A stretch of 64,000 nt of DNA. Origin: Verrucomicrobiia bacterium (GTDB lineage Bacteria > Verrucomicrobiota > Verrucomicrobiia > Limisphaerales > UBA11358). Where the stretch lies: assembly GCA_036490655.1 (NCBI GenBank), contig DASXDM010000016.1:83135-147134 (forward strand), read 5' to 3'. The notes beneath the pieces were generated by a model. It worked only from the letters and a program-made list of their open reading frames with translations. It was not told the origin of the DNA and did no database searches. Position 1 is the first letter of the stretch; each line of letters starts with the position of its first letter. A program made the position numbers and the translations under genes. Below, piece after piece: positions 50,006-64,000 of the stretch.

Positions 50006-50131
50006 TCATGATGATTTCTTCTTGGGTTTTCGGGGTTTAAGTTTCCGTGCGCCGCTGCCGCAGGCGATACAGGTTAAAATACTGCTGAAGGTTCCCTTGA
50101 TTGGCTGGATGATTTTCTTCTTCTTTTTCAT
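50006..50131 (-). CDS. Candidate 41-aa basic micro-ORF translationally coupled to the transposase
   Basis: Minus-strand ATGA: the transposase stop (50130-50128) overlaps ATG 50131-50129. Translation MKKKKKIIQPIKGTFSSILTCIACGSGARKLKPRKPKKKSS. Confidence 0.25.
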   Translation of the reverse strand: MKKKKKIIQPIKGTFSSILTCIACGSGARKLKPRKPKKKSS

Positions 50132-51048
50132 GCTGTCAAACTTTCGTAAGTTAATTGACCAGTGTCGGCTGCGCTTTGAACTGCGCCGTGGAAAATTCTC
50201 TGCGGTGGATTCAATCGGTTGTTAAACCGGACAACAAACTCGTCAACGTAGCGTTGAAGGTGTTTCTTGCTCATGCTGTGATATGTTCCGTGATAACCTC
50301 GTTTGAATAAAGCCCAGAATGATTCGATTCCGTTGATGTGGGCTTTGCCGCGAACGTATTCTCCAACGCCATGTTGGACAACACCGCGTTTGTAAATTCT
50401 GCCAAGCCGGTTATAACCCATCCACTCGTCAGTATAAAGGGTGGCGCCGCGAGCCATGTTCGATTTGAGTTGATAGTGGAGAGTGTCCATACCTGTTGAT
50501 TCGATAACTTGGGCGCGGACTTTGCCAGTTCGCGTGCGGAGACCAAAGATGGGAACCTTTCCATACGTTCCCCTGCCTTTCATTATCTCTCGCCGACGGC
50601 GACTATGCATGTTTTTGGCTTTGCCGCCGATGTAAGTTTCATCAGCTTCGACTTTACCGCGCAGCTTGCGGGTTTCCTGCTTGTGAGCCTTGCGAATCCG
50701 GTGCGCCATAAACCAAGCGGTTTTCTGCGTAACTCCCAGATGTTTGGAAAGTTGGATTGACGACATTCCTTTGGCGCTTGATGAAAGCAGGTAAATTGCC
50801 ATAAACCATTTTCGGAGTGGTAATTTACTGTCTCCAAATATCGTACCGGTCTTGATAGAAAAGTCTGACTTGCACCCGGCGCAGCGGTACCGTTTACCGC
50901 CGGAGAATTTATAAATCTCGGCATGTTCACAGTACGGGCAATATTCCCCAGCGGCGAATCGGATTTTGGCAAATTCCTTACGACAGATTTCCTCAGTATG
51001 GAAATAATCCATAAATTCCACGAGACTTTTGAATTTGAATTTTATCAT
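50128..51048 (-). CDS. IS1595-family (ISXO2-like) transposase
   Basis: N-terminal zinc ribbon CPYCEH...YRCAGCKSDFS, then LPLRKWFMAIYLLSSSAKGMSSIQLSKHLGVTQKTAWFMAHRIR, and DDE region ...VEADETYIGG...LYTDEWMGY. Confidence 0.9.
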   Translation of the reverse strand: MIKFKFKSLVEFMDYFHTEEICRKEFAKIRFAAGEYCPYCEHAEIYKFSGGKRYRCAGCKSDFSIKTGTIFGDSKLPLRKWFMAIYLLSSSAKGMSSIQLSKHLGVTQKTAWFMAHRIRKAHKQETRKLRGKVEADETYIGGKAKNMHSRRRREIMKGRGTYGKVPIFGLRTRTGKVRAQVIESTGMDTLHYQLKSNMARGATLYTDEWMGYNRLGRIYKRGVVQHGVGEYVRGKAHINGIESFWALFKRGYHGTYHSMSKKHLQRYVDEFVVRFNNRLNPPQRIFHGAVQSAADTGQLTYESLTA

Positions 51049-51090
51049 TTTTGACTTTAGGTTGTTATTTAAGTTTTACCAAGTAACGAA

Positions 51091-51354
51091 ATGCAAATTT
51101 TATTCGTCTGCGAAAAATCCGAAAATGCGTCAGAAGACGCTTGGAATAGATTCGTATCGAAAGTTTCAGATATTCCAGAAAATAAATCCTCGCCATCGCT
51201 ACGTAGTATGGAGGTTCTGTCACTAATTCAGAAAGATTACGACGGACTGCTTCTGAGCAAAATGATTTCCGCCGCCGAAGTTGCGCGGTTCCCATATAAA
51301 TTGATTTTTATTAAGGAATATTCGGAGAAGGATTTTAACCCGTCTCACCTGTAA
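51091..51354 (+). CDS. Hypothetical protein (87 aa), transposon passenger
   Basis: ORF only, in low-GC passenger DNA. Confidence 0.3.
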   Translation: MQILFVCEKSENASEDAWNRFVSKVSDIPENKSSPSLRSMEVLSLIQKDYDGLLLSKMISAAEVARFPYKLIFIKEYSEKDFNPSHL

Positions 51355-51357
51355 AAG

Positions 51358-51858
51358 TCATTTTAGTAAGATTAATTCTGTTGTGATTGGAATTTTATTG
51401 GTCACAGTCACGCCATATACCCAGGGCGTACCATAGTCGTAAAGTTCAAGCTGTCTGCCGTCCACATTCACAACGCCAATACGCAATGCGTATGCTTCAA
51501 TTTTCTGACCTTCCGCCACATCAATTATAGCGTCTGGATAATTAGTTATTGCGACTGTTTTCGTGTCGAACGGTTTCGCGTTTGGGTCAAATTCAAACGC
51601 CTCTGCCTCTGCAATAACCAACCCGTCTTCAACATTGTTAACATTCCCTAATATGGTATAAAACCCAGGAAAGCCGTTGCGGGTTTTAATTAAATCATCG
51701 AAATTAAACACCTTATTTCCAAATCTTCGGAAATTATCCGGCGCTTTATACCAATTTGTTGTGAGTGCAGTTTTGAAGATGGTATTCGTCGTAAATTGGT
51801 TGGTTTGGGATTTTGTTGAGATTGCAGACAACAAAAGTATTGCCAGAATAGTTTTCAT
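51358..51858 (-). CDS. Hypothetical secreted protein (166 aa), transposon passenger
   Basis: MKTILAILLLSAISTKSQ signal-like N-terminus. The start at 51858 lies 11 nt after the upstream gene's stop. Confidence 0.5.
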   Translation of the reverse strand: MKTILAILLLSAISTKSQTNQFTTNTIFKTALTTNWYKAPDNFRRFGNKVFNFDDLIKTRNGFPGFYTILGNVNNVEDGLVIAEAEAFEFDPNAKPFDTKTVAITNYPDAIIDVAEGQKIEAYALRIGVVNVDGRQLELYDYGTPWVYGVTVTNKIPITTELILLK

Positions 51859-51868
51859 TTTGAGCCTG

Positions 51869-52234
51869 TTAAGGTTTTCCAGATTCATCCATAGTAGATG
51901 GTTGATTGACGGCCAAACGAAGGTCGGCAACATCCAAATCGACCATATTGATTCCATTTGTGAGAATGCTGTAATCGGAATCCTCTACCGAAGCCAAACT
52001 GGCCTGACAACTTGACATAAGCTCAAAGTTGCTTTCCTGGGATTCTGACTTAGTTTCCAAAAACTGGACGCGCTGGATTAGCTGTGAAAGTTCGTTTGTT
52101 AAATTGTTTACAGTTTCGACTCCTTGGGTTGATTGTTTTTTATCGGCGTTTAAATCTGGCGTCCTGAACTCTGATACAATCAATGCTGTCAATGCCGCTA
52201 TGATTCCACTGATTATGTAATTGGTGACTTTCAT
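51869..52234 (-). CDS. Hypothetical N-terminally anchored coiled-coil protein (121 aa), transposon passenger
   Basis: MKVTNYIISGIIAALTALIVSEF anchor. ATG at 52234 lies 20 nt downstream of RNA-motif copy 1. Confidence 0.5.
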   Translation of the reverse strand: MKVTNYIISGIIAALTALIVSEFRTPDLNADKKQSTQGVETVNNLTNELSQLIQRVQFLETKSESQESNFELMSSCQASLASVEDSDYSILTNGINMVDLDVADLRLAVNQPSTMDESGKP

Positions 52235-52253
52235 ATTTGTTTCGTTTTGAAGC

Positions 52254-52404
52254 GGGAAAAGAAAAGGCGTGCAGCCAGCACACCCGATTAGAGGGCTGCA
52301 ACGCCCTGAAGAAAGATGCACCAAGCCACACGCCAACTGGCGTGGAGCCGGTCAAGGGGTTCTTCGAGAAATGTTGCAGTTTCTAATCGCCCTTACCGCT
52401 TCAC
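52254..52404 (-). ncRNA. Conserved structured-RNA-like motif, copy 1 (unassigned family)
   Basis: Minus-strand sequence is nearly collinear with 57536-57685. Long-range pair CGAUUAGA/UCUAAUCG. Terminal hairpin GGUGUGC-UGGCU-GCACGCC followed by UUUUCUUUU. Confidence 0.5.
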
Positions 52405-52671
52405 TAAAATGTCAATTTAAGGATATTGGAAGGGTTGACTCAGGCAAGCTCATTTTGTTATTGACAAGGCGTTTTGAAACACCAAACTGCGGCTGTCCGC
52501 GCAAGGGTGAACGCGGAGTGAATTTGGGCGGGGTTGGAAAAACGTTTTGCTCATTCGCATAACGCTTATTTTCTTATGACGAGAAAGTAATTACCAACCC
52601 CGCCCGCCTAAAATCATACTTTGACCCGTTTTGTGGTCAAGGGTGAATAGGTATATAGTTCCCCAAAGAAA

Positions 52672-52961
52672 TGCCGCCCGGCGCAGCCGATTTCTTCGGC
52701 GCGCTCATGAAAACCGGCTACATGATCCCGCTGATTTTCGCGACCCAAACCCTCGGCGGCGCCTTGCTCCTGCTGAATTGTTTTGTGCCGCTGGCCCTTG
52801 CGTTGCTCGCGCCGGTCATCGTCAACATCATCCTCTTCCACCTGTTCATCGCGCCTTCGGGGATCCCGATCGCATCCGTCGTGGTGGCGCTGGAACTCTA
52901 CCTGGCCTGGTCGTATCGGCGGTTTTATCTGCCGATGCTGGCGTGCCGGGCCAGGCCCTGA
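52672..52961 (+). pseudogene. 3' fragment of the interrupted DoxX-family gene
   Basis: Joining 49684-49801 to 52672-52961 restores one 135-codon frame ...FIPQPKEMPPGAADFFGALMKTGYMIPLIF...LLAPVIVNIILFHLF..., collinear with the paralogue (FLPMPPMQGPGAAFMGAMFETHY...GPVVVNILCFHTF). Confidence 0.8.
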
Positions 52962-53534
52962 TTATTTTTTCAACTTCAAGGCGAATTGGGCGACGCGTTT
53001 GCCGAGTACTTCGCCGGTCAATTTATCGGCGTCGGTCGGCGCAACGTCGGTGGGTTCTTGTCCCGCCTGACCCATCGCCCCGCTGAAACTGCCGAGACGG
53101 TTCACGCCGTTGGGTTGCATCGGCATCTCGCCAAGACCCACCCAGACCATGCCGTGTTGCATGGCGAGCGTGAAAAAATATTGTAACGTGCTGAATTTGT
53201 CGCCGCTTGGGCTGCTGGAAACACTGAACCCGGAGGCGATCTTGTCACGCCAGGCAGAGCCGAACCATTTGCCGGCGGTCGCGTCGGCAAAGGTCTTGAA
53301 CTGACCCGCCGGGCCGCCCATGTAAGTGGCACTGCCAAAAATGATCGCGTCGCTGGCATCGAGTTTGGCGAAAACTTCGTCGTTCTTATATCGTCCCTTG
53401 TTGATGTCATCACCGTTGATGGCGATGAGATGGGTTTTAACGGACGCGACGGACGCGGCGCCCTTTTGGACGGCTTCAGCCAGTTTGGCGGTGTGGCCGG
53501 AGCCGGAAAAGTAGATGATAGAGATAGTAGGCAT
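52962..53534 (-). CDS. Flavodoxin-like NAD(P)H:quinone oxidoreductase (WrbA-type)
   Basis: ISIIYFSGSGHTAKLAEAV...AIIFGSATYMGGPAGQFKTFAD... Confidence 0.85.
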   Translation of the reverse strand: MPTISIIYFSGSGHTAKLAEAVQKGAASVASVKTHLIAINGDDINKGRYKNDEVFAKLDASDAIIFGSATYMGGPAGQFKTFADATAGKWFGSAWRDKIASGFSVSSSPSGDKFSTLQYFFTLAMQHGMVWVGLGEMPMQPNGVNRLGSFSGAMGQAGQEPTDVAPTDADKLTGEVLGKRVAQFALKLKK

Positions 53535-53616
53535 AGGTTTATTAGCGGTCTTTGTTTTAATTGGTTTCAAAAAAATCCACAGGTCGTTTACACAGCTGAT
53601 ACACTACGCAAAACTC

Positions 53617-53988
53617 TTATGGTTTAACAAGACCGGCGAAATTCTGCCGGTAACTCCAGAGCAGGAAAAGCGCGAGTGCGGAAACAACCAGTGCGATGGG
53701 TAACCCCGAATGATCCATAAAAGTGTGGAAACACAGGATGTTCACAACCACCGGTCCAACCAGCGTGAGGCCGAGCGGCACGTAACGGCCGATCAGCAGC
53801 AGCAGTCCGCCGGCAACCTCGCATGTGGCGACGACATAAAGGTAATGCGTCTCAAACATCGCCCCCATAAAGGCAGCGCCGGGACCCTGCATCGGCGGCA
53901 TGGGAAGGAAATGCAGGAACTTGTTTGAGCCGAAGACGACAAACACGAGGCCGAGCAACACACGAGCGATGATAGTCAGGATTTTCAT
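53617..53988 (-). CDS. DoxX-family membrane protein (intact paralogue)
   Basis: MKILTIIARVLLGLVFVVFGSNKF...four TM segments. Confidence 0.85.
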   Translation of the reverse strand: MKILTIIARVLLGLVFVVFGSNKFLHFLPMPPMQGPGAAFMGAMFETHYLYVVATCEVAGGLLLLIGRYVPLGLTLVGPVVVNILCFHTFMDHSGLPIALVVSALALFLLWSYRQNFAGLVKP

Positions 53989-54024
53989 ATTTTTAATTGT
54001 AGTTTAAGTGGAGGGGCCGGAGTT

Positions 54025-54678
54025 TCAGATATTGAGAAAAACCCGTTCTTTGGGAAAACGGACTTTCGGCGCTGTCGCATATTTATCCGTCGGCAACCGG
54101 TAGCCGAGCGTCGCGATCACGCCGCTGGCGAACCCTTGCGCTTTCAAACCAAGGATTTCATCGTATTGCGCGCGGTCAAATCCCTCCATCGGACAGGCAT
54201 CGATGCCGAGCAAAGCGGCGCTGGTCAAAAGATTGCCCAGGCCGATATAAACCTGGTTGCGCGCCCAGGCATTGCGACCGGCCTCGTCCTGGCTTTGCAC
54301 GATGCCGCCGACCAGCATGCCGCGTAACGGCGCCAGCGCTTCAACCGGAATCCCCTGCACTCCGGCGATATGTTTGACATGGGCATCCACGTCTGCCTCG
54401 TTGAAATTGGTTTTTGAGGCGAATACGACCAGATGCGAAGCATCGGTGATCTGCGCCTGCCCGTAAGATGCCGGCTTAAGTTTTGCGCGAACGACGGGAT
54501 CGGTGACGACGATAAATTTCCACGGCTGTAAACCGCCGCTGGAGGGTGTCAGCAACAATGCTTCCTCCAGCGTGGCCCAGTCCTGGGAATTGATTTTTTT
54601 GTTAGGATCAAACTGTTTGGTGGCGTAGCGCCAATTGAGCTGATGGATCAATGTTTCCGGAGTGATACTTGTGTTCAT
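54025..54678 (-). CDS. Nitroreductase-family NAD(P)H oxidoreductase
   Basis: LNWRYATKQFDP...LLLTPSSGGLQPWKFIVV...GIDACPMEGF. Confidence 0.9.
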   Translation of the reverse strand: MNTSITPETLIHQLNWRYATKQFDPNKKINSQDWATLEEALLLTPSSGGLQPWKFIVVTDPVVRAKLKPASYGQAQITDASHLVVFASKTNFNEADVDAHVKHIAGVQGIPVEALAPLRGMLVGGIVQSQDEAGRNAWARNQVYIGLGNLLTSAALLGIDACPMEGFDRAQYDEILGLKAQGFASGVIATLGYRLPTDKYATAPKVRFPKERVFLNI

Positions 54679-54763
54679 GATCTAATTTTGTTTCTTTGTT
54701 TTTTTATTTAAATTTCGGCTGGAAAAATTGAAGGCAACCGGTTTCCCGATTGCCTTCATCTGT

Positions 54764-55459
54764 TCAGTTCAAGTCGAACAACAAAACCTGTGACGGTTTG
54801 TTGGCCGAGAGTTCCAATTTCGTTTCCTGGCTCACCGCCGCCGCGTCCCCGGCGGAAAGCGTCTTGCCGTTCAACACGACTTCGCCTTCAGCGACATGGA
54901 CCCAGGCATTGCGGTTGGCCGCAAGCGCATGCGCGGTCTTCTGTCCCGCATCCAATTTCGCCAGCCACAGGTCTGCGTCCTGATGGATGGCGATCGAGCC
55001 ATCGCGGCCCGTCTTGCTCGTCATCAGGTGCAATTGGCCCGTGGGCGTGTCGCGCAGGGTCTTCTCCGCATACCGCGGCTTGAGACCCTTGGCATCGGGC
55101 ATGATCCAGATCTGCAACAGGCGCACCGCCTCGTCTTTCGACGGATTGAACTCGCTATGTTGCACCCCGCTGCCGGCGGACATGTATTGCAGGTCGCCCG
55201 CGCGGATGATACTGCCGTTGCCCATGGAATCCTTGTGCTGGAGCGCGCCACTAAGCACATACGTGACGATCTCCATATCGCGATGCGGATGGGCGCCAAA
55301 GCCCTGCCCCGGCATCACCAGGTCGTCATTGATCACCCGCAGGCTGCGGAACCCCATCCAATTCGGATCATAATAGTCCGCAAAACTGAAGGAATGATAA
55401 GTGTCCAGCCAGCCATGTTCGGCGTGGCCCCGTTCATTTGCTTTTCGTATAGTCATCAT
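54764..55459 (-). CDS. Pirin-family protein
   Basis: RKANERGHAEHGWLDTYHSFSFADYYDP...GFGAHPHRDMEIVTYVLSGALQHKDSMGN. Confidence 0.9.
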   Translation of the reverse strand: MMTIRKANERGHAEHGWLDTYHSFSFADYYDPNWMGFRSLRVINDDLVMPGQGFGAHPHRDMEIVTYVLSGALQHKDSMGNGSIIRAGDLQYMSAGSGVQHSEFNPSKDEAVRLLQIWIMPDAKGLKPRYAEKTLRDTPTGQLHLMTSKTGRDGSIAIHQDADLWLAKLDAGQKTAHALAANRNAWVHVAEGEVVLNGKTLSAGDAAAVSQETKLELSANKPSQVLLFDLN

Positions 55460-55468
55460 GGAAAGACT

Positions 55469-55912
55469 CTACCGCGCGCCTGTGATCCTGTGAAATATCA
55501 TGTTTCTTGCCTTAGTATAACTTAAAGGTATACTGCCCGTCCACATTGGTGCGTGGTAGGGTGAGCATGTGGAATTTAAAACCAAAGAATTGTCCGGATC
55601 GACTCGAAGAATTGGAAGCGAGTTTGCGTTTGTATCGATTGGAGAGATTGGGTTTATAACTGACAACAAGGGGCTGGCAGATTTAATCATGGCTTTGAAT
55701 CGGGTTCTGGAGGAGGACGCCGCTTTCCCATTCGTGGAAGAAACCTGTTTGTCCCAAACCAATCTTCCGCAGGATACTTCATCAAAAAAAACCCGCTGAT
55801 GTAAAAGAATTTGCTCCTCCGCCTCTGAATCATTCGTTCCCGGTGGCAGATCAAAATAAGTTCCAGTCTCATCGTCCACATAACGTTGTTCATTTATTTT
55901 CCGTAACTTCAT
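55469..55912 (-). CDS. Hypothetical protein (147 aa); the 3' end runs across the transposon's left terminus
   Basis: ORF only. Its last ~20 codons lie outside the IR boundary, so the native C-terminus is uncertain. Confidence 0.3.
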   Translation of the reverse strand: MKLRKINEQRYVDDETGTYFDLPPGTNDSEAEEQILLHQRVFFDEVSCGRLVWDKQVSSTNGKAASSSRTRFKAMIKSASPLLSVINPISPIDTNANSLPILRVDPDNSLVLNSTCSPYHAPMWTGSIPLSYTKARNMIFHRITGAR

Positions 55913-55924
55913 TCCTCAAATAGT

Positions 55925-56959
55925 CTAGCGAGCAGAAAGAAGTTCTTCAACCGTCCAAACGTGGTCAGTCAGTCCTGCCGCCATTGCTGGCGTCATCCCG
56001 ATAGCACTGTGAACACGGCAGAAGTTAAAATGAGCAACGAACAAGGCAACAGCATGGCGATGGTTTTCGGTCTTCTTTGAGAAATTGATAGTCCGACGAA
56101 CAAACCTGCGGTTAAACGTCCTCAGGCTGAGGTTTGTCCGCTCACAATGGCCGATGGTGGCGTGTTTCATGTCAGGATAGCCAATGCGAGGACTGCGATA
56201 CACTTTGACCAGTTTTGGGGCGAAGAAGACGCGGTTTCCTGTATAACGTGGATCGGTCCTGAAACGCTTGGTCTCCGTCGCGTAATGGCAGTTGTCACCC
56301 AGAATGTCCTTAACCGCCCCAGCGCTTCCATGAAGTGCCACATATCCTCTGAATGAGTCGGTGGTGAGTTGGAACCGATTGGTGATGCGTGAGCCTAAAT
56401 CCTTCAAAAACCCTTCCGTTTCCTCGCCTGTGCGTTTTCCGACCCTATAACTGACAATCAGCTTCTCGTCCTTGGCGACCGCCAGGAACGTCCACATTGA
56501 ACCGCGCTCTGGGTCATCCTCATTCTCACCGTTGGGCTTCTGTTTGATATAAGAGAACACCTCGTCGCATTGGACATATGGAATGGTCAGGTTTCGGACT
56601 TTGGAATCCAGCAGACGGGCGCAATGCTCTCCAGCAGATTCAAGGATGCGTAAAACCGTATCTTCGTCCACACATGCCAGCCGGCCAGCCGCACGAATAC
56701 CGACCGTCTCAGCCAGCATTGAGACTATCTGAGCCGCCTTGGCGCGATCTGTGCGTATGCCATCCAAAGGCTGCGTTTCACTGAAAGACTTGGCACAGCG
56801 GATGCACTTGAACCTCTGGACAGTCCCATTTCGATTCTTGAAACGACCACACTTTTTCACCTTTCCGCTACAACAATGACAGTTCAATTTCTCCTTTCTT
56901 AATATCGTTGACTTATGTTTAACATAAGTTAGTCTCAATGCAAGACTTTTGTTAAACAA
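55925..56959 (-). CDS. IS1-family-like transposase (fused zinc-finger + DDE form)
   Basis: CHCCSGKVKKCGRF...FKCIRCAKSF zinc-finger. HTH-like region. C-terminal HCERTNLSLRTFNRRFVRRTINFSKKTENH...FNFCRVH, typical of IS1 InsB. No in-frame ATG near the 5' end: the track start is a TTG, and an alternative TTG at 56887 is preceded by AAGGAG. Confidence 0.65.
   Translation of the reverse strand: MFNKSLALRLTYVKHKSTILRKEKLNCHCCSGKVKKCGRFKNRNGTVQRFKCIRCAKSFSETQPLDGIRTDRAKAAQIVSMLAETVGIRAAGRLACVDEDTVLRILESAGEHCARLLDSKVRNLTIPYVQCDEVFSYIKQKPNGENEDDPERGSMWTFLAVAKDEKLIVSYRVGKRTGEETEGFLKDLGSRITNRFQLTTDSFRGYVALHGSAGAVKDILGDNCHYATETKRFRTDPRYTGNRVFFAPKLVKVYRSPRIGYPDMKHATIGHCERTNLSLRTFNRRFVRRTINFSKKTENHRHAVALFVAHFNFCRVHSAIGMTPAMAAGLTDHVWTVEELLSAR
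56911..56929. promoter_or_regulatory. 9-bp perfect inverted repeat ACTTATGTT-T-AACATAAGT between the divergent transposase and RHH genes
   Basis: Read directly from the sequence. Lies in the 5' region of the IS1-like transposase gene. Confidence 0.35.
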
Positions 56960-56963
56960 AACT

Positions 56964-57146
56964 ATGAAAAATAAAATGGGCAGACCTCAAATTGTGCCAG
57001 GTGAGTCAAAAAGCATCCTGATTGGGGCAAGGTTCTCCCCTGACGAATCAAAGAGAGTTCACACCGCTATTGGCAAGTCTGGGAAAACGAAGTCAGAATG
57101 GGTCAGAAAGACCTTGCTTTCGGCGGCTGGCAAAGATACTGTCTAA
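56964..57146 (+). CDS. Small RHH/MobC-like DNA-binding protein (60 aa)
   Basis: MKNKMGRPQIVPGESKSILIGARFSPDESKRVHTAIGKSGKTKSEWVRKTLLSAA: GRP...beta-strand...two helices, like CopG/MobC-type proteins. Confidence 0.45.
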   Translation: MKNKMGRPQIVPGESKSILIGARFSPDESKRVHTAIGKSGKTKSEWVRKTLLSAAGKDTV

Positions 57147-57535
57147 GCATCTCGGCGACCCCAAGTTGCCTGTCGGCGGACGAAATGAACTGTGCAAAAG
57201 GAAATTTCGTCCGCCGTTTTATTTTCTTGGCGACTGATTCTGGCGTCATCAGCCCCCGCGTTATATCCAGGCCATAAAAGTCCCGCTCCTCTCGCCGGTT
57301 GAAACCCGTTGTAAGACTGGCGGGCGGCAATCAGAGCGGTAAATTACTTCATTGATGTTTTACGCTTTCAACAGCGCATTACCGATCAAATCGGCAACAA
57401 TCAGCATCCTCTCATTGTTCTGATTTATGGTCAATAATTTATTAACGTAAAGTGCTTATACAAAGCGGATTGTATAGAGCATTGGATGGGCTTGACTATC
57501 ACACTCAAACCGGATTGTATGGTTATTGAAATTTA

Positions 57536-57685
57536 GTGAAGCGGTAAGGGCGACTAGAAATTACAACATTTCCGAGAGAAACTCCCCTGCCACGCTCCAC
57601 GCCCATCGGGCGTGTGGTTTGGCGCATCTTTCTCAAGGGCGTTGTAACCCTCTAGTCGGGTGTGCTGGCTGCACGCCTTTTCCCT
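57536..57685 (+). ncRNA. Conserved structured-RNA-like motif, copy 2
   Basis: GTGAAGCGGTAAGGGCGACTAGAAA...TCTAGTCGGGTGTGCTGGCTGCACGCCTTTTCCC. Pair CGACUAGA (57551-58) / UCUAGUCG (57651-58). Terminal hairpin 57659-57677 plus a U-tract. Confidence 0.55.
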
Positions 57686-57730
57686 GTCTTGCTTCAATAA
57701 TAAATGACAGAAAACACATAAAATCTTAGA

Positions 57731-57869
57731 GCACACAGGAACTATCACATTCTTAAAAGAAGACTCTGCTCCAACGCGGGAAACCGGGCTTGGCGTGTAA
57801 TTGCAATGCATTCTTCTTGGGCTGTGATAGGCCTCTGTGGGGTGTGTTCGGTTGCACGCCATTTTTATT
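57731..57869 (+). ncRNA. Conserved structured-RNA-like motif, copy 3 (tandem with copy 2, more diverged)
   Basis: CACAGG (57734-39) / UCUGUG (57834-39). Hairpin GGTGTGTTCGGTTGCACGCC (57841-60) plus ATTTTTATT. Ends 20 nt before ATG 57889. Confidence 0.45.
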
Positions 57870-57888
57870 GCTCTGATGGAAGGAAGTT

Positions 57889-58086
57889 ATGAAAAAGATA
57901 TTGGTCGCTATTACCTGCATGCCGTTGATCCAAGGTTGTGTCGTTCAAAGAATAATGGATTCTCAGGATCGACAACATTATTCGGAATACCTGGAACAAG
58001 TGGATCAAACCAATTTGGAGCGCGAGAAATCCCACCTGCCCGACGAGAAGCCGATGGCGTTCGATGAATGGGATGGTAAAAAATAA
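57889..58086 (+). CDS. Small lipoprotein (65 aa)
   Basis: MKKILVAITCMPLIQGC lipobox. GGAAGGAAG Shine-Dalgarno-like sequence 3-11 nt upstream. Confidence 0.55.
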   Translation: MKKILVAITCMPLIQGCVVQRIMDSQDRQHYSEYLEQVDQTNLEREKSHLPDEKPMAFDEWDGKK

Positions 58087-58093
58087 GGGACAT

Positions 58094-58453
58094 ATGCCAT
58101 CCGATTTCCATTTTGCCACAGCCATGATAGAACTGGTCGAGAAAAGACCCTCTCAGGGACTTCTGGCTCGATGCTATTCCGAAGCCGAAGGAGATGAAGC
58201 TAAGGCAAGGGCAAAATACGTTGCCATGCGAGCCAAGGAAATTGAGGAGCAGGAAGAAGCCGCCATCAAACAGTATGAGCAACAGGTAAAGAGAAAGGAA
58301 TCGGAACGCCAAAAGGTGATTAATTCTTTCAATTTTGAAATGTTCCAAAAAGAATACAAGCGTGAAATACCACTCCGCTATTATGGCCGAAAAGAGCAAC
58401 AGGATATGTTCAAAGAATGGAGAAATCGGAAGCTGAGAGAAATGGAGGCGTAA
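58094..58453 (+). CDS. Hypothetical protein (119 aa), charged coiled-coil C-terminal half
   Basis: ATG at 58094 preceded by AAGGGA. Tight packing with its neighbours. Motif GLLARCYSEAEGDEAKARAKYVAMRAKEI. Confidence 0.45.
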   Translation: MPSDFHFATAMIELVEKRPSQGLLARCYSEAEGDEAKARAKYVAMRAKEIEEQEEAAIKQYEQQVKRKESERQKVINSFNFEMFQKEYKREIPLRYYGRKEQQDMFKEWRNRKLREMEA

Positions 58454-58455
58454 AA

Positions 58456-58791
58456 ATGGAAGAGTCAAAACAGACAGATACCGATCGGATAAAACATCTT
58501 GAGTCTGTGAATAGAGCACTCAATCGAGATATTGAGTGGTTAAAAGGCAAGATTGAAATGGATGATAAGGCAAAAAAAGATGCTAAAAAGAGTGTGGTTA
58601 ACGGGGCATTGGTAATCATCATGATGATTGTTGGCCTTATCGGATGGTCGGCAATCCTTTACTTCTGCATTGCAAATTTTAGCCCATTCCCAGCGGTAAT
58701 GGTTTTGTTCGTATTATCCTGGTTGTGGTCATGGATTTGCTACGTGCCACTTCGGAAAATTGATAATAAACAAAAGGAAAACACAAAATGA
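58456..58791 (+). CDS. Hypothetical membrane protein (111 aa)
   Basis: Coiled-coil N-terminus, then two hydrophobic helices (GALVIIMMIVGLIGWSAILYFCIA; AVMVLFVLSWLWSWICYV). ATGA overlap with the next ORF. Confidence 0.45.
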   Translation: MEESKQTDTDRIKHLESVNRALNRDIEWLKGKIEMDDKAKKDAKKSVVNGALVIIMMIVGLIGWSAILYFCIANFSPFPAVMVLFVLSWLWSWICYVPLRKIDNKQKENTK

Positions 58792-59006
58792 ACAACCTGC
58801 AATGTTACGACGAAATTACCGACCACACAATCCATTCAGTTTACCAAATATGGTCGCATAAACAGTTATCAAATAGTGAGCAGGTTCAGGTGATTGGGAA
58901 GAAATCACTTCACACCATCCTGAGAACTGACATCTTTTATCGAGGTCAACCTGGCTACCAGATTGTGGAAATCATCGCGGGCGACGGCTGGGAGGGCGCG
59001 GAATAA
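58788..59006 (+). CDS. Hypothetical protein (72 aa)
   Basis: ORF coupled by ATGA to the upstream gene. Its 3' end overlaps a convergent 80-aa ORF (58905-59147, minus strand); which of the two is real is unresolved. Confidence 0.3.
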   Translation: MNNLQCYDEITDHTIHSVYQIWSHKQLSNSEQVQVIGKKSLHTILRTDIFYRGQPGYQIVEIIAGDGWEGAE

Positions 59007-59181
59007 ATCGGCGGCAATCATTGCAGCGACATGCTCGGGCATCTTAAATGCCCGAAGCTCATTTATGGATGAGCCGAGGAGCAGTGTATATTCTCCGCCG
59101 TTATTTCTGACGGCGTGCACGTTTGCTTGGGTTTCAGGAACATTCATGGCATTGATTGGTGGTTTTAATTATGTTGTTTCA

Positions 59182-59469
59182 ATGAATCTCAAGAACGGCC
59201 TCTTTTGGTATCGTGATGAGGCGACGTATCTCCGCTTCCGAGAAATTATTGATGACAAGGATCAACTTGTGTCTCCTTACTCTGTTTGGGTTGCAAAGGC
59301 TGAGAAATTTATTGAGGAAAAGGCCGAGCAGGGGACTTTTCTTGTCAAAATCAAAGCTGACCCCGATGAGTTTGTCTCGTGGTGTAATATCAATTCCAGA
59401 AAACCTGACGGGAGAGCCAGGATGCTTTTTGCAATAGAGAAGGCACGCCATATAGGAGGCAATGGATAA
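59182..59469 (+). CDS. Hypothetical protein (95 aa)
   Basis: MNLKNGLFWYRDEATYLRFREIIDDKDQL...DPDEFVSWCNINSRKPDGRARMLFA. Internal ATG of the track ORF 58963-59469. Confidence 0.4.
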   Translation: MNLKNGLFWYRDEATYLRFREIIDDKDQLVSPYSVWVAKAEKFIEEKAEQGTFLVKIKADPDEFVSWCNINSRKPDGRARMLFAIEKARHIGGNG

Positions 59470-59820
59470 TTTGCCTGAAAATGTTACCCCATCCCGTTCA
59501 TCGGAGATTTCAAATATTTTTGCCGCCACAGCACCAATGTGGACGGGCAGTATACTTAAAGGTATGGTGTCCATCTAGATTGGTGCTGGAATTTATCGCT
59601 TGCGTTTCCCACGCCGTGGCTCAGCTTTGGAACGTTAGTCTGATTCCAATACCAATGAAAAATATCGTCCTCGCAATCGGTTGCTGGCTATTGAGCTTGT
59701 TCTTTTTCTATTTCGGAATTATTCACTTCATAAAACTTACACGGACATCCCCTGATGCCACGGTGTAAAATAGGTTTATACAGTACCCCTGCATCCCGGT
59801 ATTATATAGGGTGTTAGACC

Positions 59821-60901
59821 GGCCAAATAAAACTCGCAAGTTGCTTATTTTAAGTTGCTTAGACAGCGAATGTCTAAGGCTAATTGTTAAAATTCAGGCA
59901 TGATTAAGAGTAAAAAACAGTTTGAGTCTCAAAAGGGGCAAAGCTTGCCTAACATGACTGAATACGAAGCCAGAATGCATCTTGAAGGTATTCGGTGGCC
60001 AAATGGGCCAGTTTGTCCTCAATGCAAAAGTTCAAACGTCTATGAAATGCAAGGAATGAGCATCCGTCCTGGTTTACGCCGTTGCCGAGAATGCAAAAAG
60101 CAATTCACTGTAACGGTTGGGACCATTTTTGAAGATTCACACCTGCCTCTGTCTATTTGGATTCAAGCTTTTCACCTGATTTGTGCCAGCAAGAAAGGAA
60201 TTTCATCGTTGCAGCTTCAAAGAAATCTTGGATTAGGATCATACCGGACTGCTTGGTATTTGTCCCATCGCATCCGTTTAGCCATGAAAACAAACCCTAA
60301 AAATTTTACTGGAACTGTTGAGGTGGATGAAACTTACGTGGGAGGAAAGCCTCCGGCTGGCATTAAATCAAAACGCGGTCGTGGAACTTACAAAACTCCG
60401 GTCGTCGTAGTCGTTGAGCGCGATGGTAGAGCTTATTCCAGACCAGTTGACCGCGTTACTTCAGCTAATCTCAGGAATGTCATCAGAGAATGCGCTGCCG
60501 ATGCTTCAGCAATTCACACTGACGAATTTGCAAGTTATCGGAGTTTGAGCAAGCACTTTGCTGCTAAACATGAATTTGTTAATCACGGTGAAGGAGAATA
60601 TTCCAGAAACGGAGTGAACACCAATACAGCTGAAAGTTACTTTGCCCTGCTGAAACGTGGAATCCGTGGAACTTTTCATCATATCAGCAAAAAGCATTTG
60701 CACCGTTACTGCAACGAGTTTGAATTTCGATGGAACAGCCGAAAGCACCTAGATTTAGACAGACGGGATTGGGCATTAAAGCACACCGAAGATAAATTGT
60801 TGAGATTCCGTGAACTGGTTGGAAATTGAGTTCTTAAATAAGTAACGAGGCGTCCTGGCCTTTTATCCTAAGTATGGAACTGTTGAGATTACGATTTGGC
60901 C
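59821..60901 (+). mobile_element. IS1595-family insertion sequence, second and unrelated copy (~1.08 kb)
   Basis: Imperfect terminal repeats GGCCAAATAAAACTCGCAAGTTGC (59821-) versus reverse complement of the right end GGCCAAATCGTAATCTCAACAGTTCC (-60901). No convincing target duplication seen. Confidence 0.5.
59900..60829 (+). CDS. IS1595-family transposase
   Basis: CPQCKSSNVYEM...RRCRECKKQFTVTVGTIFEDSHLPLSIWIQAFHLICASKKGISSLQLQRNLGLGSYRTAWYLSHRIR; VEVDETYVGG; IHTDEFASY. Confidence 0.9.
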   Translation: MIKSKKQFESQKGQSLPNMTEYEARMHLEGIRWPNGPVCPQCKSSNVYEMQGMSIRPGLRRCRECKKQFTVTVGTIFEDSHLPLSIWIQAFHLICASKKGISSLQLQRNLGLGSYRTAWYLSHRIRLAMKTNPKNFTGTVEVDETYVGGKPPAGIKSKRGRGTYKTPVVVVVERDGRAYSRPVDRVTSANLRNVIRECAADASAIHTDEFASYRSLSKHFAAKHEFVNHGEGEYSRNGVNTNTAESYFALLKRGIRGTFHHISKKHLHRYCNEFEFRWNSRKHLDLDRRDWALKHTEDKLLRFRELVGN

Positions 60902-60997
60902 TTTTACAGTCGTCGTTTTCAACAGTTCCGGAATAAATCCTTACGGAGTGGGGGCCGAGCCTCGTTACACAAATTTAGCCCAAGTCCTGCTTTATGT

Positions 60998-61372
60998 CTA
61001 TTTTCCATCTTTTTCTTTGTCCCATCCAATTTTAAATCCAGCCTTATAGCCATTCATCCAATCTTGGCGGTCTCCTGCATTATCAAATTTCATGTCAGCC
61101 GTATCACGACGGCCTTTTGAATCAAATTCTTCATCGGTTGGATAAGAATCTCCTCGATTATAGGCAGCTATTCCATCAACTGCTCCAATCCATGCGCCGG
61201 ACTCAAATACGCTGTTTGTACCAGATTGTGACGTTTGGTCAGATGAATTAGTATTTTGGTTGGATTGAGACGTAGTGCTCTGGTCAGGCAATAACGAACC
61301 AATCAAAATAAGAAGTGTAAAACTGACAATGACTCCAACCACAATTTTAGCCCAAAGAGGCAATTTTTTCAT
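60998..61372 (-). CDS. Hypothetical N-terminally anchored S/T/N-rich protein (124 aa)
   Basis: MKKLPLWAKIVVGVIVSFTLLILIGSLL anchor. ATG at 61372 lies 41 nt downstream of RNA-motif copy 4. The longer track ORF reads through the motif. Confidence 0.5.
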   Translation of the reverse strand: MKKLPLWAKIVVGVIVSFTLLILIGSLLPDQSTTSQSNQNTNSSDQTSQSGTNSVFESGAWIGAVDGIAAYNRGDSYPTDEEFDSKGRRDTADMKFDNAGDRQDWMNGYKAGFKIGWDKEKDGK

Positions 61373-61412
61373 ACATTGAACCCTTTCTGGATGATTAGCG
61401 ATTGGAAGATGA

Positions 61413-61552
61413 CAGGAAAAAGGCGCGAACCTGACGCACCCAGCTAGAGGCACTTGGAAGAGCCCGCCACAAGACACGCCAAGCCGCGCCCAGTGAGGGC
61501 GTGACTCGGACGGGTTTGTGGTATGAAAGTTTCCAAGTTTTCTAGCCACCCG
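61413..61552 (-). ncRNA. Conserved structured-RNA-like motif, copy 4 (most diverged)
   Basis: Minus strand: GGCUAGA/UCUAGCU long-range pair. Terminal hairpin GGUGCG-UCAGGUU-CGCGCC plus UUUUUCC. Shares CUAGAAA, CACGCCC, UUGGCG, CUCUAG and CGCCUUUU blocks with the other copies. Confidence 0.45.
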
Positions 61553-62233
61553 TGACCGACCTACGCTAAATTGTTATGTCGGCCATAACCATCCCAAGAG
61601 GGTGGAAATTGTCAACAAATTTTTGACCCTGAGCGAGAAAGTGAATTTATGAGAACAGTTATCGTATTCGCAGAATTGCCAAAAATGACCGATACAGTCT
61701 CAACCATAACGAGATGGCAAGATTTTTTGAAAAATGCAGAAGGTTCCTACAGGCCAACCGCAGAAAGTGCCCACCCGACCATAAATCTGTGGCAGCTACC
61801 CTTAAATAGTGGATTGCCATTCTTGGCCAAGTTATTTCAGTTCTCGGAACTTTATCAAATTCCCATTCATGCCCTAATCTTGGACGAGCCTCCAGAGTGG
61901 ATAAAATATCCCCCAACCAGTTAAGAATTTTGCTTTCTTTCATGAAGACCAGAACACTTTCCGTCATTCACCCTGACAGACTCTCAGGATGCCAGTATAA
62001 CAAAAGTTTTATGAAGTGAATAATTCCGTTCTATTTTATCCGAAACACCATCCAAATGGGATATGTGCGGTCACGCGGTGGGCTGGTTTTAACGAGAAGC
62101 AAAAACCCATTCCAGTTTTGGGCGGGAGTTGTAGCCTTATTTTTAGGTGCTGCTTTTCTCATTGTGTTCGGATTAATCGTCATTTTCGGAAAGGTTAAAC
62201 TATGAGATTACATCAGCCGCGCTGGAGCCAACA

Positions 62234-62317
62234 TCAGATTGGACTCGCAAGTAACTCCTCAACCGTCCAAACATGGTCTGTGAGTCCTGATGCCATTGCC
62301 GGTAAAGCGCTTGTGGA
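62234..62317 (-). pseudogene. 3'-terminal remnant of an IS1-like transposase gene
   Basis: Minus-strand translation ...PAMASGLTDHVWTVEELLASPI* parallels the C-terminus of the intact copy (...TPAMAAGLTDHVWTVEELLSAR*). DNA CTCAACCGTCCAAACATGGTC..GAGTCCTG..GCCATTGC aligns with 55947-55992. Confidence 0.55.
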
Positions 62318-62349
62318 AATCTTGTAATCAGAACGATGCCAAATTGATT

Positions 62350-62530
62350 TTCTGCCGTCCCTGCGGGACTCAATTTGATTTAAATTCTAACCCCACCGAT
62401 AAATCGGTGGGCTATCGCCTATCGGCCTCCGGCCTTTTGTTAGCGCCTTCGGCGCGACCGACAATAGCCCGCCGTTTCAACGGCGGGTGGCGGTGGCAAT
62501 AGTGACGGAGTCCCGTTAGGGACGGCAGAA
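62350..62530. repeat. 181-bp MITE-like element with 22-nt terminal inverted repeats and three internal hairpins
   Basis: TTCTGCCGTCCCTGCGGGACTC (62350-71) versus reverse complement of 62508-62530 = TTCTGCCGTCCCTAACGGGACTC. Internal hairpins CCACCGAT-AA-ATCGGTGG, GCGCC-TTC-GGCGC and CCGCCG-TTTCAA-CGGCGG. Confidence 0.55.
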
Positions 62531-62611
62531 CGAATTATCGATAGCGTTATCAAACTTTGAGGCTTGCAAGGACTCGCCACATAATTCAGCTTTAAACGCT
62601 AGCATTGGAAA

Positions 62612-62989
62612 ATGGGGATTTTTGTATTCATTTTTATCGCTAATCTTGCCGTCTGTATCGGAGTTTGGTTCTTGACCAAGAAACTGCCGATATGGATGCG
62701 ATTGCTTGTTGTCACATTTCTTCTTGCAGTCGTGATTACGCCTGTCGGCGGAGCCGGCGAGGGAGGTGCTTGGATCATGCCCCTGGGGATCATGCTAACA
62801 TTTTTATTATATAATGTAATCATGGGCGTTGGCGACTACGGCGATCTCCATGCTTTATTTAGGGAAAATTTTGCTCTCGGCCTCTTCTTGGAAATTTGGG
62901 GCATTACCTATCTTCTCTGTATAGTTGTTGTGTTAATTCGCTACTTGATCAAAATAGGCAAAAGACCTAGGACGACAGTGGTGAAATGA
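62612..62989 (+). CDS. Hypothetical membrane protein (125 aa)
   Basis: Four hydrophobic segments. ORF only. Confidence 0.4.
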   Translation: MGIFVFIFIANLAVCIGVWFLTKKLPIWMRLLVVTFLLAVVITPVGGAGEGGAWIMPLGIMLTFLLYNVIMGVGDYGDLHALFRENFALGLFLEIWGITYLLCIVVVLIRYLIKIGKRPRTTVVK

Positions 62990-62996
62990 TACTAAA

Positions 62997-63890
62997 ATGG
63001 AACTACGCCATCTCCGTTACTTCATCGCGGCGGCGGAACAGGAAAATGTTTCGCGCGCGGCGGTGAAACTGCGCGTCTCGCAGCCGGGCGTCAGCCGGCA
63101 GATCCGGGATCTGGAAGAGGAGATCGGGTTCAAACTGTTTGAGCGCAGCGCCAGATCGTTGAAGTTGACCAAAGCGGGTAAAATCTTCCTCACGGAAGCG
63201 CGCGCCGTCCTGCAACGGGCCGATGACGCAGTGAAAACTGCGCGCGCAGCGGCCAACAAACCCGGTGGCGAATTGCATGTGGGCTATGCGCCGTCATTGA
63301 CCGTCCGCATCCTCCCGCAGGCGTTGCGGGTCTTCCAGGAAAAATATCCTGAAGTGCGCGTCTCGCTCCATGATCTGTCCACGGAAGAGATGTTCGCCGG
63401 CGTGCGCGGGGGAAAATTGCAGGTGGCGCTCACCGTGCAGCCCAAGGCCAAATCGCTGCGCGACCTGGATTTCAAACTGCTCGCGCGGTACACCATGAGC
63501 ATCGCGGTCGCGCCGAAGCACCGGCTGGCGAAATTGAAGTCTGTCACCCTGGCGCAATTGCTGGAAGAGCCGCTCATCGGTTACAGCCGCGAAGAATATC
63601 CCGAATACCATGCGCATCTCGCGCGGATCTTCGCCCCGGGACCCATCCCCGAGGTGGTCGAGGAGCATGATGGCATCGCCAGCATCGTGGCCGCGGTGGA
63701 ATCAGGCCGCGGCTTTGCGCTGGTGCCGGATTCTTTCGCCTGCATGGCCGGGCCCCGATTAAGGATCATTCCATTGAACCCCAGGGGTGAGTTGATCCCC
63801 GTCGGGGCGATCTGGAAGAAAAAGGCGGCCACGCCCTTGATCGAGAAATTTGTCGAGGCGGCAGGAGGAGGAGAGTTAAACCGCGAATAG
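62997..63890 (+). CDS. LysR-family transcriptional regulator
   Basis: MELRHLRYFIAAAEQENVSRAAVKLRVSQPGVSRQIRDLEEEIGFKLFER HTH, plus a LysR substrate-binding domain. Confidence 0.9.
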   Translation: MELRHLRYFIAAAEQENVSRAAVKLRVSQPGVSRQIRDLEEEIGFKLFERSARSLKLTKAGKIFLTEARAVLQRADDAVKTARAAANKPGGELHVGYAPSLTVRILPQALRVFQEKYPEVRVSLHDLSTEEMFAGVRGGKLQVALTVQPKAKSLRDLDFKLLARYTMSIAVAPKHRLAKLKSVTLAQLLEEPLIGYSREEYPEYHAHLARIFAPGPIPEVVEEHDGIASIVAAVESGRGFALVPDSFACMAGPRLRIIPLNPRGELIPVGAIWKKKAATPLIEKFVEAAGGGELNRE

Positions 63891-64000
63891 ACGCAAATAA
63901 ACGCGAATTTGGAGAAGAAATGGAAAAAGAAGAGACCTCCAGCCAGATGTCCACTTTTAAGATTGTGTTTCCCCGCAACATGACGCTTTTTGCTTTCCTG

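Follow-up and report, generated by a model that had tools for sequence, protein, structure and literature searches.

What are the four similar structured segments that lie shortly before unrelated open reading frames (ORFs) in the mobile DNA of a verrucomicrobial contig, and what could they do there? The stretch concerned, hereafter the window, covers 64,000 nt of contig DASXDM010000016.1 from a Verrucomicrobiia bacterium. A first inspection of its letters (the original prediction) had reported four copies of a structured-RNA-like motif, each closed by a hairpin and a U tract, and had compared it with a transcription-attenuating riboswitch, a leader or a portable small RNA (sRNA). The comparative data presented here give good support to a genuine structured RNA family of about 160 nt, with 75 distinct members, which appears to encode two mutually exclusive folds. 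Concerning its function, our confidence is about evenly divided for and against the reading favoured below, namely a portable cis-acting leader or attenuator standing in front of transposon cargo genes.

Four copies of a structured element in the window

A covariance model (R1) was built from 11 relatives found elsewhere and then run on the window. Apart from one weak echo noted below, it matched the following four copies and nothing else.

57529-57686, plus strand: copy c1; 157 bits, E 1e-38; fold of -68 kcal/mol, z -5.0
57710-57869, plus strand: copy c2, in tandem with c1 and the most divergent; 48 bits, E 4e-10; fold z -4.3
52257-52411, minus strand: copy c3; 161 bits, E 1e-39; fold z -5.6
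61413-61573, minus strand: copy c4, of a second subfamily (GGGUGCG...CGCGCC terminator); 62 bits, E 1e-13; fold z -5.8

The remaining match in the window was a weak reverse-strand echo of c1 (13.6 bits, E 0.12). A 3' block common to the copies, CCTCT-N3-4-GGGTGYG-N5-8-CRCGCC-NTTT, occurred four times in the window and not once in 100 dinucleotide shuffles. The four copies could be aligned with one another, and each folded alone as a 5' single-stranded tail, a rod of about 110 nt, a short GC-rich hairpin and a U tract, with energies of -57 to -72 kcal/mol (z -4.3 to -5.8; 0/200 shuffles as stable). The R1 matches, the shared 3' block and the individual folds bear out the four places originally proposed, with the correction that the conserved unit starts about 7 nt further upstream. 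The compensatory helix changes listed between copies at that time were genuine. The series of ordered sequence blocks then said to be common to all four did not hold for c2, which lacks the AATTTAGCG block and has AAATCTTAGAGC there instead.

Copies c1-c4 had no match among the families of Rfam 15, whether the whole window was searched at the gathering threshold or positions 50000-64000 at E up to 5. Membership in 6S RNA was not supported, since no match to Rfam, 6S families included, was obtained at E up to 5 and the element is multi-copy and transposon-borne. Full-text literature searches on Verrucomicrobia RNA motifs and on IS1595 passenger genes, together with Rfam, yielded no description of this RNA.

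Distribution and covariation of the family

One genome per species was scanned with the 3' block, which returned 21 loci, 13 of them clear homologues. Ten of these 13 came from metagenome-assembled genomes (MAGs) whose names refer to Verrucomicrobiota or one of its subgroups. The labels of the remaining three (L001, L004 and L006) were delta-proteobacterium, Candidatus Sulfotelmatobacter (Acidobacteriota) and actinobacterium, and the actinobacterium-labelled contig was identical to a Verrucomicrobia subdivision 3 contig (L018); these off-phylum labels point to mis-binned mobile DNA or to horizontal transposon transfer. The same scan of Joint Genome Institute (JGI) metagenomes gave 116 stretches, 80 of which were returned as loci, mainly from peat, bog and soil samples. 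Model R1 collected 85 copies, 75 of them distinct, nearly all from Verrucomicrobiota MAGs and from peat and soil metagenomes. A phage or plasmid origin was left unsupported, as neither a pattern search of IMG/VR nor a blastn search of PLSDB found any copy.

Throughout the R1 alignment, 95.6% of the rod and terminator positions were paired in the structure outlined above, hereafter fold R. Changes on both sides of a pair were found in 32 of its 42 pairs, which 0/500 shuffles matched, and double-change cells numbered 550 as against 165 +/- 16 with partners shuffled. Sliding the structure by 1-3 columns lowered the pairing to 31-50%. G-U pairs were numerous, and reverse-strand scores of 12-31 bits contrasted with 48-186 bits for full-length forward matches. 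Pairing that is strand-specific and rich in G-U places the structure on the strand of the downstream ORF, i.e. in RNA. The initial assumption of a conserved structured RNA was thereby upheld: it is strand-specific, strongly covarying and outside Rfam. Concerning methods, RNAalifold on plain MAFFT alignments (of the four copies and of the 5' halves) gave wrong or empty structures owing to misalignment, and structures were taken instead from a close subfamily and from the model-based alignment.

Anatomy of the leader

The element begins with a near-invariant 5' motif, AAUUUAGCG(U/G/A)AG, followed by a purine-rich, subfamily-specific tail (GCGGUAAGGGC, GUCGGAAGGUC, GGCAGG, GGUUAGG or GGUUCGG). 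The rod consists of helices P1-P6 with conserved internal loops, and the terminator hairpin comes directly after P1, as GGGUGUG...CACGCC in c1, c2 and c3 and as GGGUGCG...CGCGCC in the subfamily of c4. The U tract is short (3-6 U) and merges into a pyrimidine tract. An intrinsic-terminator scan reported stems of 7-8 bp with 4-5 GC pairs and T-rich tails in c2, c3 and c4; the terminator hairpin of c1 has the same sequence as that of c3. By its sequence, the 3' hairpin with its U tract qualifies as a predicted intrinsic (Rho-independent) terminator. The main parts were positioned as follows.

57529-57686, plus strand: c1, with 5' motif AAAUUUAGUG, tail GCGGUAAGGGC and rod at 57551-57658
57659-57677 (approximate), plus strand: terminator hairpin of c1, with U tract at 57678-57681
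57841-57860, plus strand: terminator hairpin of c2, followed by AUUUUU (terminator scan)
52285-52265, minus strand: terminator hairpin of c3 (terminator scan)
61441-61421, minus strand: terminator hairpin of c4 (terminator scan)

An upstream alignment anchored on the 5' motif contained a -35-like TTGAC 45-47 nt before TTTAG in five of seven loci, and 39-40 nt before it in c1 and c3. Neither a -10 element nor a transcription start could be resolved in this alignment of seven loci, and sigma-54, extracytoplasmic function (ECF) and Bacteroidetes-type promoter motifs, judged by eye, gave no consistent fit.

57492-57497, plus strand: putative promoter of c1, -35-like TTGACT, 40 nt before TTTAG
61615-61610, minus strand: -35-like TTGACA of c4
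52447-52442, minus strand: -35-like TTGCCT of c3

Copy c2 lacks the AAUUUAGCG motif, and has no obvious promoter of its own because it begins only 24 nt past the terminator of c1. The invariant AAUUUAGCG stretch is unpaired in fold R and partly paired in the alternative fold described next; in our model it is the best candidate for a factor-binding site. A leader peptide was rejected on inspection, there being no ATG and the compensatory changes being such as to wreck any reading frame.

A second, mutually exclusive fold

Complementarity exists between the tail of the leader and the rod's inner 5' strand. For the most common type, GGUAAGGG pairs with CCCUUGCC, and the two segments covary between loci (tail first, inner strand second).

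L029: GGUAAGAG with CUCUUACC
L026: GGUGUGGGC with GCCCACGCC
L011: GGUAGGG with CCCCUGCC
L044: GGCAAGGUC with GACCUGUGCC
L091: GGCAGG with CCUGCC
L057: GCGGUUC with GAACCGC
L079: GGUUCG with CGAACC
L095: GGUUAGGUCU with AGACCAGACC

Since the tail directly joins P1, this pairing excludes P1-P4 and defines an alternative structure, fold D. All representatives folded their first 68-85 nt into the tail:inner helix, which encloses a further hairpin (GAAAU-N6-AUUUC for one subfamily, GAAAA-N7-UUUUC for the second). An alignment-free duplex test gave -17.0 kcal/mol for cognate tail:inner pairs as against -13.9 for non-cognate ones (permutation standard deviation 0.31), and on a crude alignment of 30 close relatives the tail:inner pairing reached 81%, as against 28-49% when slid.

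When the 5' domain was held in constrained folding, the 3' half formed a long hairpin of its own. There, the loop and 3' strand of the terminator are paired with GGGCGYG and the bases after it, which in the rod make up the 3' strand of P6 and P5b; the 5' strand of the terminator pairs with a conserved GCAU-pyrimidine segment. The two domains of fold D in c1 are given below.

57536-57600, plus strand: 5' domain, tail:inner helix with nested hairpin GAAAU-N6-AUUUC (prefix and constrained folding, duplex test)
57608-57678, plus strand: 3' domain, long hairpin in which the terminator has as partners GGGCGUGUGGUU for its loop and 3' strand and GCAUCUUUC for its 5' strand

Taken alone, the 3' half had a folding energy of -39.3 kcal/mol as against -27.1 for shuffled sequences (mean z -4.2; 96% below -2). 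The local terminator hairpin, estimated from its sequence at about -13 kcal/mol, is insufficient to explain this stability. Among all sequences in which the segment could be cleanly read, GGGCGUG always accompanied a CACGCC terminator and GGGCGCG a CGCGCC one, while the rod partner of the variable position often stays A, leaving an A-C mismatch in P6. The terminator loop likewise covaries with the segment that follows GGGCGYG (GGCUUG with CAAGUU or CAGGUU, GGCCUG with CGGGUU, GGCUCG with CGAGUC, GGCAUG with UGUGU). Within the second subfamily, 31-33 of 34 sequences were paired at each of five loop positions; U-A and C-G alternate at two loop positions, and L059 (GGCAUG with UGUGU) adds A-U in the duplex fold. 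Placed on the alignment fitted to the rod, fold D was 85.5% paired, as against 35-59% when slid, with 20 double-change pairs as against 5-14.

Taken together, these sequence data indicate that a single RNA sequence specifies two folds that exclude each other; covariation supports each of them, and each makes use of the terminator. Fold R is the more stable by 5-18 kcal/mol; up to a transcript length of about 100 nt, the structure of lowest energy is the 5' domain of fold D. The existence of two exclusive folds had escaped the first inspection of the window, as had the membership of the copies in transposons.

Coupling to downstream ORFs

The orientation of the leader relative to the ORF downstream was always the same. 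In most instances a start codon follows 18-50 nt past the leader (median gap about 28 nt), usually with a ribosome site of the GAAAGGAAA type. Of 67 elements, 53 (79%) had a same-strand ORF of 100 aa or more whose ATG lay 5-60 nt downstream, as against 11.5% of random positions in these loci. With the minimum ORF length lowered to 45 aa, the proportions were 90% for elements and 25% for random positions. For the window, the ATGs initially noted at 52234, 57889 and 61372 do trail the U tracts closely, by 22, about 20 and 40 nt. In c2, c3 and c4, a promoter scan reported nothing in the gap from terminator to ATG, and such a gap is presumably too short for a separate sigma-70-type promoter. With no room for a promoter there, transcription of the cargo should come through the leader. 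Judged on sequence, the leader thus occupies the place expected of an attenuator, on the strand of the ORF, between this ORF and a promoter-like element and with apparently no room for a second promoter. Tandem copies were seen twice, as c1-c2 in the window and as another pair in L047.

57889-58086, plus strand: first cargo ORF after c1-c2, 65 aa, lipobox-like MKKILVAITCMPLIQGC; further ORFs at 58064-58453, 58417-58791 and 58788-59006, with no Pfam family for most
51869-52234, minus strand: first cargo ORF after c3, 121 aa, N-terminal hydrophobic anchor; next ORF at 51358-51957, minus strand
60998-61372, minus strand: cargo ORF after c4, 124 aa, N-terminal hydrophobic anchor; a gene call in JGI and Logan assemblies

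The lack of relationship between the downstream proteins, remarked on for the window from the start, extended to the family as a whole. A Pfam scan of 66 downstream proteins matched 56 different families and left many proteins unmatched. Generic zinc ribbons were the commonest class, with at most six members; other families included Sel1 repeats, DUF5122 propellers, LamG, BamE-like lipoproteins, SNF2 helicase, GYF, SHOCT and TM2. Cargo proteins ranged from 47 to 809 aa, and many of them, by eye, were small with an N-terminal hydrophobic segment or lipobox, as first remarked for the three in the window. Such functional heterogeneity counts against a riboswitch specific to a pathway or metabolite. 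Some leader-cargo pairs may nevertheless be stable, since one protein of about 300 aa, beginning MRSLEKGG...KKILKVQPSEEPRWKLLEKIVVEGRETFYAVA, recurred in four metagenome contigs (L031, L063, L081 and L058, all of one leader subfamily). This protein had no Pfam family among the 25 listed.

Transposon setting

Protein clustering within 3 kb of all elements disclosed two recurrent neighbours, of about 310 and 344 aa, both transposases, and no other conserved neighbour gene. One is an IS1595-family transposase (NF033547, 210-217 bits for a cut-off of 75, with PF12762 and PF12760). The other is an IS1-family-like transposase (PF03400, 25.9 bits for a cut-off of 24.1; NF033558, 75 bits, below the cut-off). 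All four copies in the window lie within three transposon units, where they head cargo genes.

49802-52663: unit A, 26-nt inverted repeats at 49802-49827 and 52638-52663 (92%), 8-bp duplication CAAAGAAA; all on the minus strand, it contains a promoter-like element with c3, two cargo ORFs, then an IS1595-family transposase (50128-51048)
55528-59555: unit B, perfect 25-nt inverted repeats at 55528-55552 and 59531-59555, TTAAAG duplication; it contains an IS1-like transposase (55925-56959, minus strand), a NikA-like ORF (56949-57146), c1, c2 and cargo ORFs
59714-62028: unit C, perfect 25-nt inverted repeats at 59714-59738 and 62004-62028, 8-bp duplication TTCTATTT; it contains an IS1595-family transposase (59900-60829, plus strand), with c4 and its cargo convergent on the minus strand

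The original assignment of all copies to low-GC mobile DNA was right as to mobility and can now be refined to these three discrete units. Outside the window, inverted repeats of two types enclosed transposase, leader and cargo in L005, L036, L072 and L047, and one of these two kinds of transposase was present within 4.5 kb in 17 of 78 distinct non-window elements. All kinds of relative orientation between transposase and leader occurred, which makes the leader-cargo cassette an independent module inside the transposon. The portability ascribed to the motif from the outset is supported.

Units A and C, in which terminal inverted repeats flanked by 8-bp duplications enclose a transposase and passenger genes, are transporter insertion sequences (tIS) of the IS1595 family. 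Such elements are known for families IS1595 and IS66 (10.1101/2021.05.26.445724). As read from its sequence, unit B is a tIS design built on an IS1-like transposase, outside the IS1595 and IS66 families to which tIS are said to be confined. It is worth noting that positions 59562-59588, 6 nt past the right end of unit B, hold an imperfect (78%) inverted copy of its terminal repeat, which was probably left by another insertion or else represents a nested end. The NikA-like ORF of unit B (56949-57146, plus strand) encodes a 65-aa ribbon-helix-helix protein (26.4 bits for a Pfam cut-off of 27) and lies about 380 nt 5' of c1. Its product could be a DNA-binding regulator of the cassette promoter, and units A and C have no equivalent.

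A leader with attenuator features and its alternatives

The attenuator reading builds on features that were directly observed: the structure of the RNA, its two sets of pairings, its place with respect to the ORF, the terminator-like hairpin, the promoter-like element at a fixed distance and the membership in transposons. According to it, the module's own promoter would transcribe an RNA of about 165 nt just before the passenger genes of Verrucomicrobiota transposons, the promoter-leader-terminator module being found on IS1595-family tIS, on an IS1-like relative and also at loci without a visible transposase. The cargo ORF, which starts 18-50 nt beyond the U tract, would be reached only by polymerases passing the leader terminator, and the leader would in this way be a cis-acting attenuator that sets or regulates cargo expression. 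What we infer is the start of transcription, its termination and read-through, as well as which fold is 'on'.

How the switch might operate can be pictured from the two folds. Fold R, with its free 5' tail, 110-nt rod and local 7-bp terminator hairpin, would be the thermodynamic ground state. For fold D, the tail and 5' motif would lie on the inner 5' strand of the rod, leaving the 3' half to its own long hairpin, and its 5' domain may form first during transcription. The R pathway would then end in the rod and a short terminator, and the D pathway in two hairpins, the last of which offers a longer stem at the same U tract. With so short a tract, termination may be more efficient at one hairpin than at the other, and the choice of pathway would change the efficiency of stopping there. 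Long-stem terminators behave unlike short ones (PMC10325885). The choice itself could be kinetic, or it could be set by a host factor acting on the invariant AAUUUAGCG region.

Several observations speak against such an attenuator. No conserved conformation was found in which the 3' strand of the terminator is free: it is paired by the local hairpin in fold R or by the apical 3' strand in fold D, and both end at the U tract. A zipper-type pairing of the tail with the 5' strand and loop of the terminator did appear in prefix folds of c1 and c4, and was rejected as an antiterminator because it is at chance level (-9.6 kcal/mol cognate, -9.8 non-cognate, -8.5 +/- 2.9 with shuffled tails), in a duplex test whose power is low, the two partners being nearly invariant. 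In its 5' domain, fold D was only weakly more stable than shuffles (mean z -1.6; near zero in the GUCGGAAGGUC subfamily). Of the 12 non-window loci that extend 2.5 kb or more to either side, only 5 had a transposase within 4.5 kb. Furthermore, the pattern used to search for homologues fixed CCUCU and the terminator stem, so that conservation there is partly ascertainment; the alignments were model-fitted and the sequences are related by descent, and the shuffle counts given above are not probabilities.

Two further partners for these regions were considered. For a helix closing the element, formed by the tail and the pyrimidine tract that follows the terminator, the cognate preference was slight and weak (-8.05 as against -7.45, shuffled -6.3 +/- 2.7). 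Sequestration of the Shine-Dalgarno sequence by the post-terminator tract was rejected, the pairing being equal to that of shuffles.

Another possible explanation, unlikely and still deserving attention, is a stand-alone gene for a trans-acting sRNA, with a product of about 165 nt that would, for example, use its 5' tail as a seed or be a protein sponge, and with cargo expressed through incidental terminator leak only. The promoter-like element of its own, a terminator that is paired in both folds and the invariant 5' stretch, single-stranded in fold R and liable to be hidden in fold D as in switchable sRNAs, would all suit such a gene. However, a spacing of 18-50 nt to a same-strand start codon in some 80-90% of instances, with no room for a cargo promoter, is not expected of an independent sRNA, and c2 has no promoter motif of its own. 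Antisense pairing of the tail to the translation-start regions of the transposases was not significant (z -1.75 to +1.3), and no target was found.

We find it rather improbable that the leader is a constitutive, non-switching 5' untranslated region (UTR), which would stabilise or insulate the cargo mRNA, perhaps through a block to read-in transcription and protection of the 5' end, or provide an RNase III site, the alternative pairings being no more than intermediates on the way to the correct fold. Unrelated cargo does suit a general expression cassette, the energy difference in favour of fold R points the same way, and covarying metastable helices formed during transcription occur elsewhere, for example in hok mRNAs. 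The 3' domain of fold D, however, uses the loop and 3' strand of the terminator, which are transcribed last, so it is not merely an early intermediate. Moreover, a GC-rich hairpin with a U tract right before an ORF would cut expression in the absence of a regulatory purpose, and tandem copies are ill-suited to a simple stabiliser.

A bolder extension of the attenuator is a novel RNA device of mobile elements, namely a bistable, 'self-sensing' switch carried by transposons and tuned to the copy number of the same subtype; we regard it as speculative and doubtful. A terminated leader RNA and a nascent leader of the same subtype are complementary, the first in its 5' half and the second in its 3' half. 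On accumulating, leader RNA might drive fresh transcripts out of fold R and into fold D with its long hairpin, so that expression of the cargo, and possibly of the transposase, would be tuned to the copy number of the transposon subtype. The compensatory divergence between c1, c2, c3 and c4 could then reflect selection for orthogonality, like that of plasmid incompatibility RNAs.

The attenuating-leader layout of the original prediction was retained, a terminator-like hairpin lying 18-50 nt before same-strand ORFs in about 70 independent instances, and a metabolite riboswitch was judged unlikely, on account of the unrelated genes and the lack of an obvious pocket. A riboswitch for a small molecule or second messenger, whose ligand would stabilise one fold and so control the terminator, is in our opinion very unlikely. 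A terminator-type expression platform, two exclusive folds and a tandem arrangement are all compatible with it, and some second-messenger riboswitches precede very diverse genes. Nevertheless, the 66 downstream proteins form no coherent pathway, the element is borne by transposons and no Rfam match was obtained at E up to 5. The conserved non-helical nucleotides of fold R, moreover, are largely those that form the helices of fold D, which leaves no obvious ligand pocket.

Finally, a DNA-level element (a palindrome resembling miniature inverted-repeat transposable elements (MITE) or repetitive extragenic palindromes (REP), or a recombination site) would account for an imperfect palindrome in mobile DNA and for varied cargo beside a conserved element, and is scarcely credible in view of the strand-specific pairing with its many G-U pairs and low reverse-strand scores, the constant orientation relative to the ORF, borders devoid of inverted repeats or target duplication of their own (these belong to the larger transposon), the low copy number (a single copy for most of the loci fetched, two each for L047 and L079, four in the window) and the lack of any integrase among the window ORFs scanned with Pfam and NCBIfam.

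Other features of the window

Rfam matches between 50000 and 64000 consisted only of Acido-Lenti-1 motifs near 62.4 kb, unrelated to the leader. This motif was first reported from Acidobacteria and Lentisphaerae, and its gathering score is 37. Two of its copies form an inverted pair just beyond the right end of unit C, and in the window it resembles an intergenic palindromic repeat of the REP or bacterial interspersed mosaic element (BIME) type rather than a single sRNA gene.

62442-62487, minus strand: Acido-Lenti-1 motif, 41.9 bits
62392-62435, plus strand: Acido-Lenti-1 motif, 31.8 bits
62347-62369, plus strand: Acido-Lenti-1 motif, 19.0 bits
38673-38735, plus strand: Acido-Lenti-1 motif, 39.9 bits
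38806-38926, plus strand: thiamine pyrophosphate (TPP) riboswitch before thiC (38870-40906), 46.8 bits, E 4.7e-8 (gathering score 54.3)
9287-22102, plus strand: giant ORF of 4271 aa
4706-9061: preceding ORF of 1451 aa, no NCBIfam match

As the TPP riboswitch overlaps the mechanically called start of thiC, the true start codon is probably further downstream.

Significance and comparison with known systems

Verrucomicrobiota are abundant in soils and peat and, to our knowledge, almost nothing is known about RNA-based regulation in this phylum. The family described here adds a new RNA with an unusual bistable architecture and a mobile genomic niche. It appears as a standard part of passenger-carrying transposons, supplying unrelated genes with a ready promoter and leader, and the setting of c1 and c2 extends the transporter IS organisation to an IS1-like transposase. 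Should switching prove true, the leader would represent a compact expression switch, ligand-independent or factor-dependent, travelling with mobile DNA, and a tractable model for co-transcriptional choices in RNA folding.

Among known systems, repeats of the Correia or REP type are also short intergenic palindromes of mobile or variable DNA able to affect the expression of neighbours. They are, however, high-copy, with sequence-conserved inverted ends, and occur in either orientation, whereas the leader is low-copy and strand-specific, with the covariation of an RNA. Terminator-type riboswitches and T-box leaders share the succession of promoter, structured leader, terminator, short gap and ORF, with tandems possible; the leader differs from them in having no conserved downstream function, no recognisable aptamer and no Rfam match.

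A closer parallel in folding is offered by the hok family, for whose mRNAs Gultyaev, Franch and Gerdes reportedly described, in 1997, metastable and alternative folds supported by covariation. RNAs of the hok type form an early 5'-internal pairing that is later displaced by a long-range structure, both of which covary, and they reside on mobile DNA. Early 5' pairing, coupled covariation of two structures and mobile DNA are thus common to both. Unlike hok loci, those of the leader have neither an antisense RNA gene nor a conserved small toxin ORF, their cargo is diverse, and the alternative fold involves the terminator.

Concerning the genomic setting, units A and C resemble IS1595 tIS in their transposase, inverted repeats, 8-bp duplications and internal passenger genes, and unit B departs from them in its IS1-like transposase. 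We know of no conserved structured leader RNA described for tIS as heading their passenger genes.

The conjugative plasmid pLS20 carries cATT, a zipper-type attenuator in which an upstream segment pairs with the terminator's 5' stem and its loop, lengthening the long stem to form an antiterminator (PMC13401043). It is likewise the leader of a mobile element, with a long imperfect stem-loop between a conserved upstream segment and an intrinsic terminator, mutually exclusive conformations and no known ligand (PMC13401043). The two differ in host phylum, sequence and gene context. They also differ in their pairings: complementarity between tail and terminator is at chance level in the present leader, whose tail pairs with the inner strand of the rod and whose terminator, by its loop and 3' strand, pairs with the apical 3' strand. 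Although it fails the complementarity test that defines the pLS20 system, the leader would work most like the attenuators of mobile elements, and like that of pLS20 in particular.

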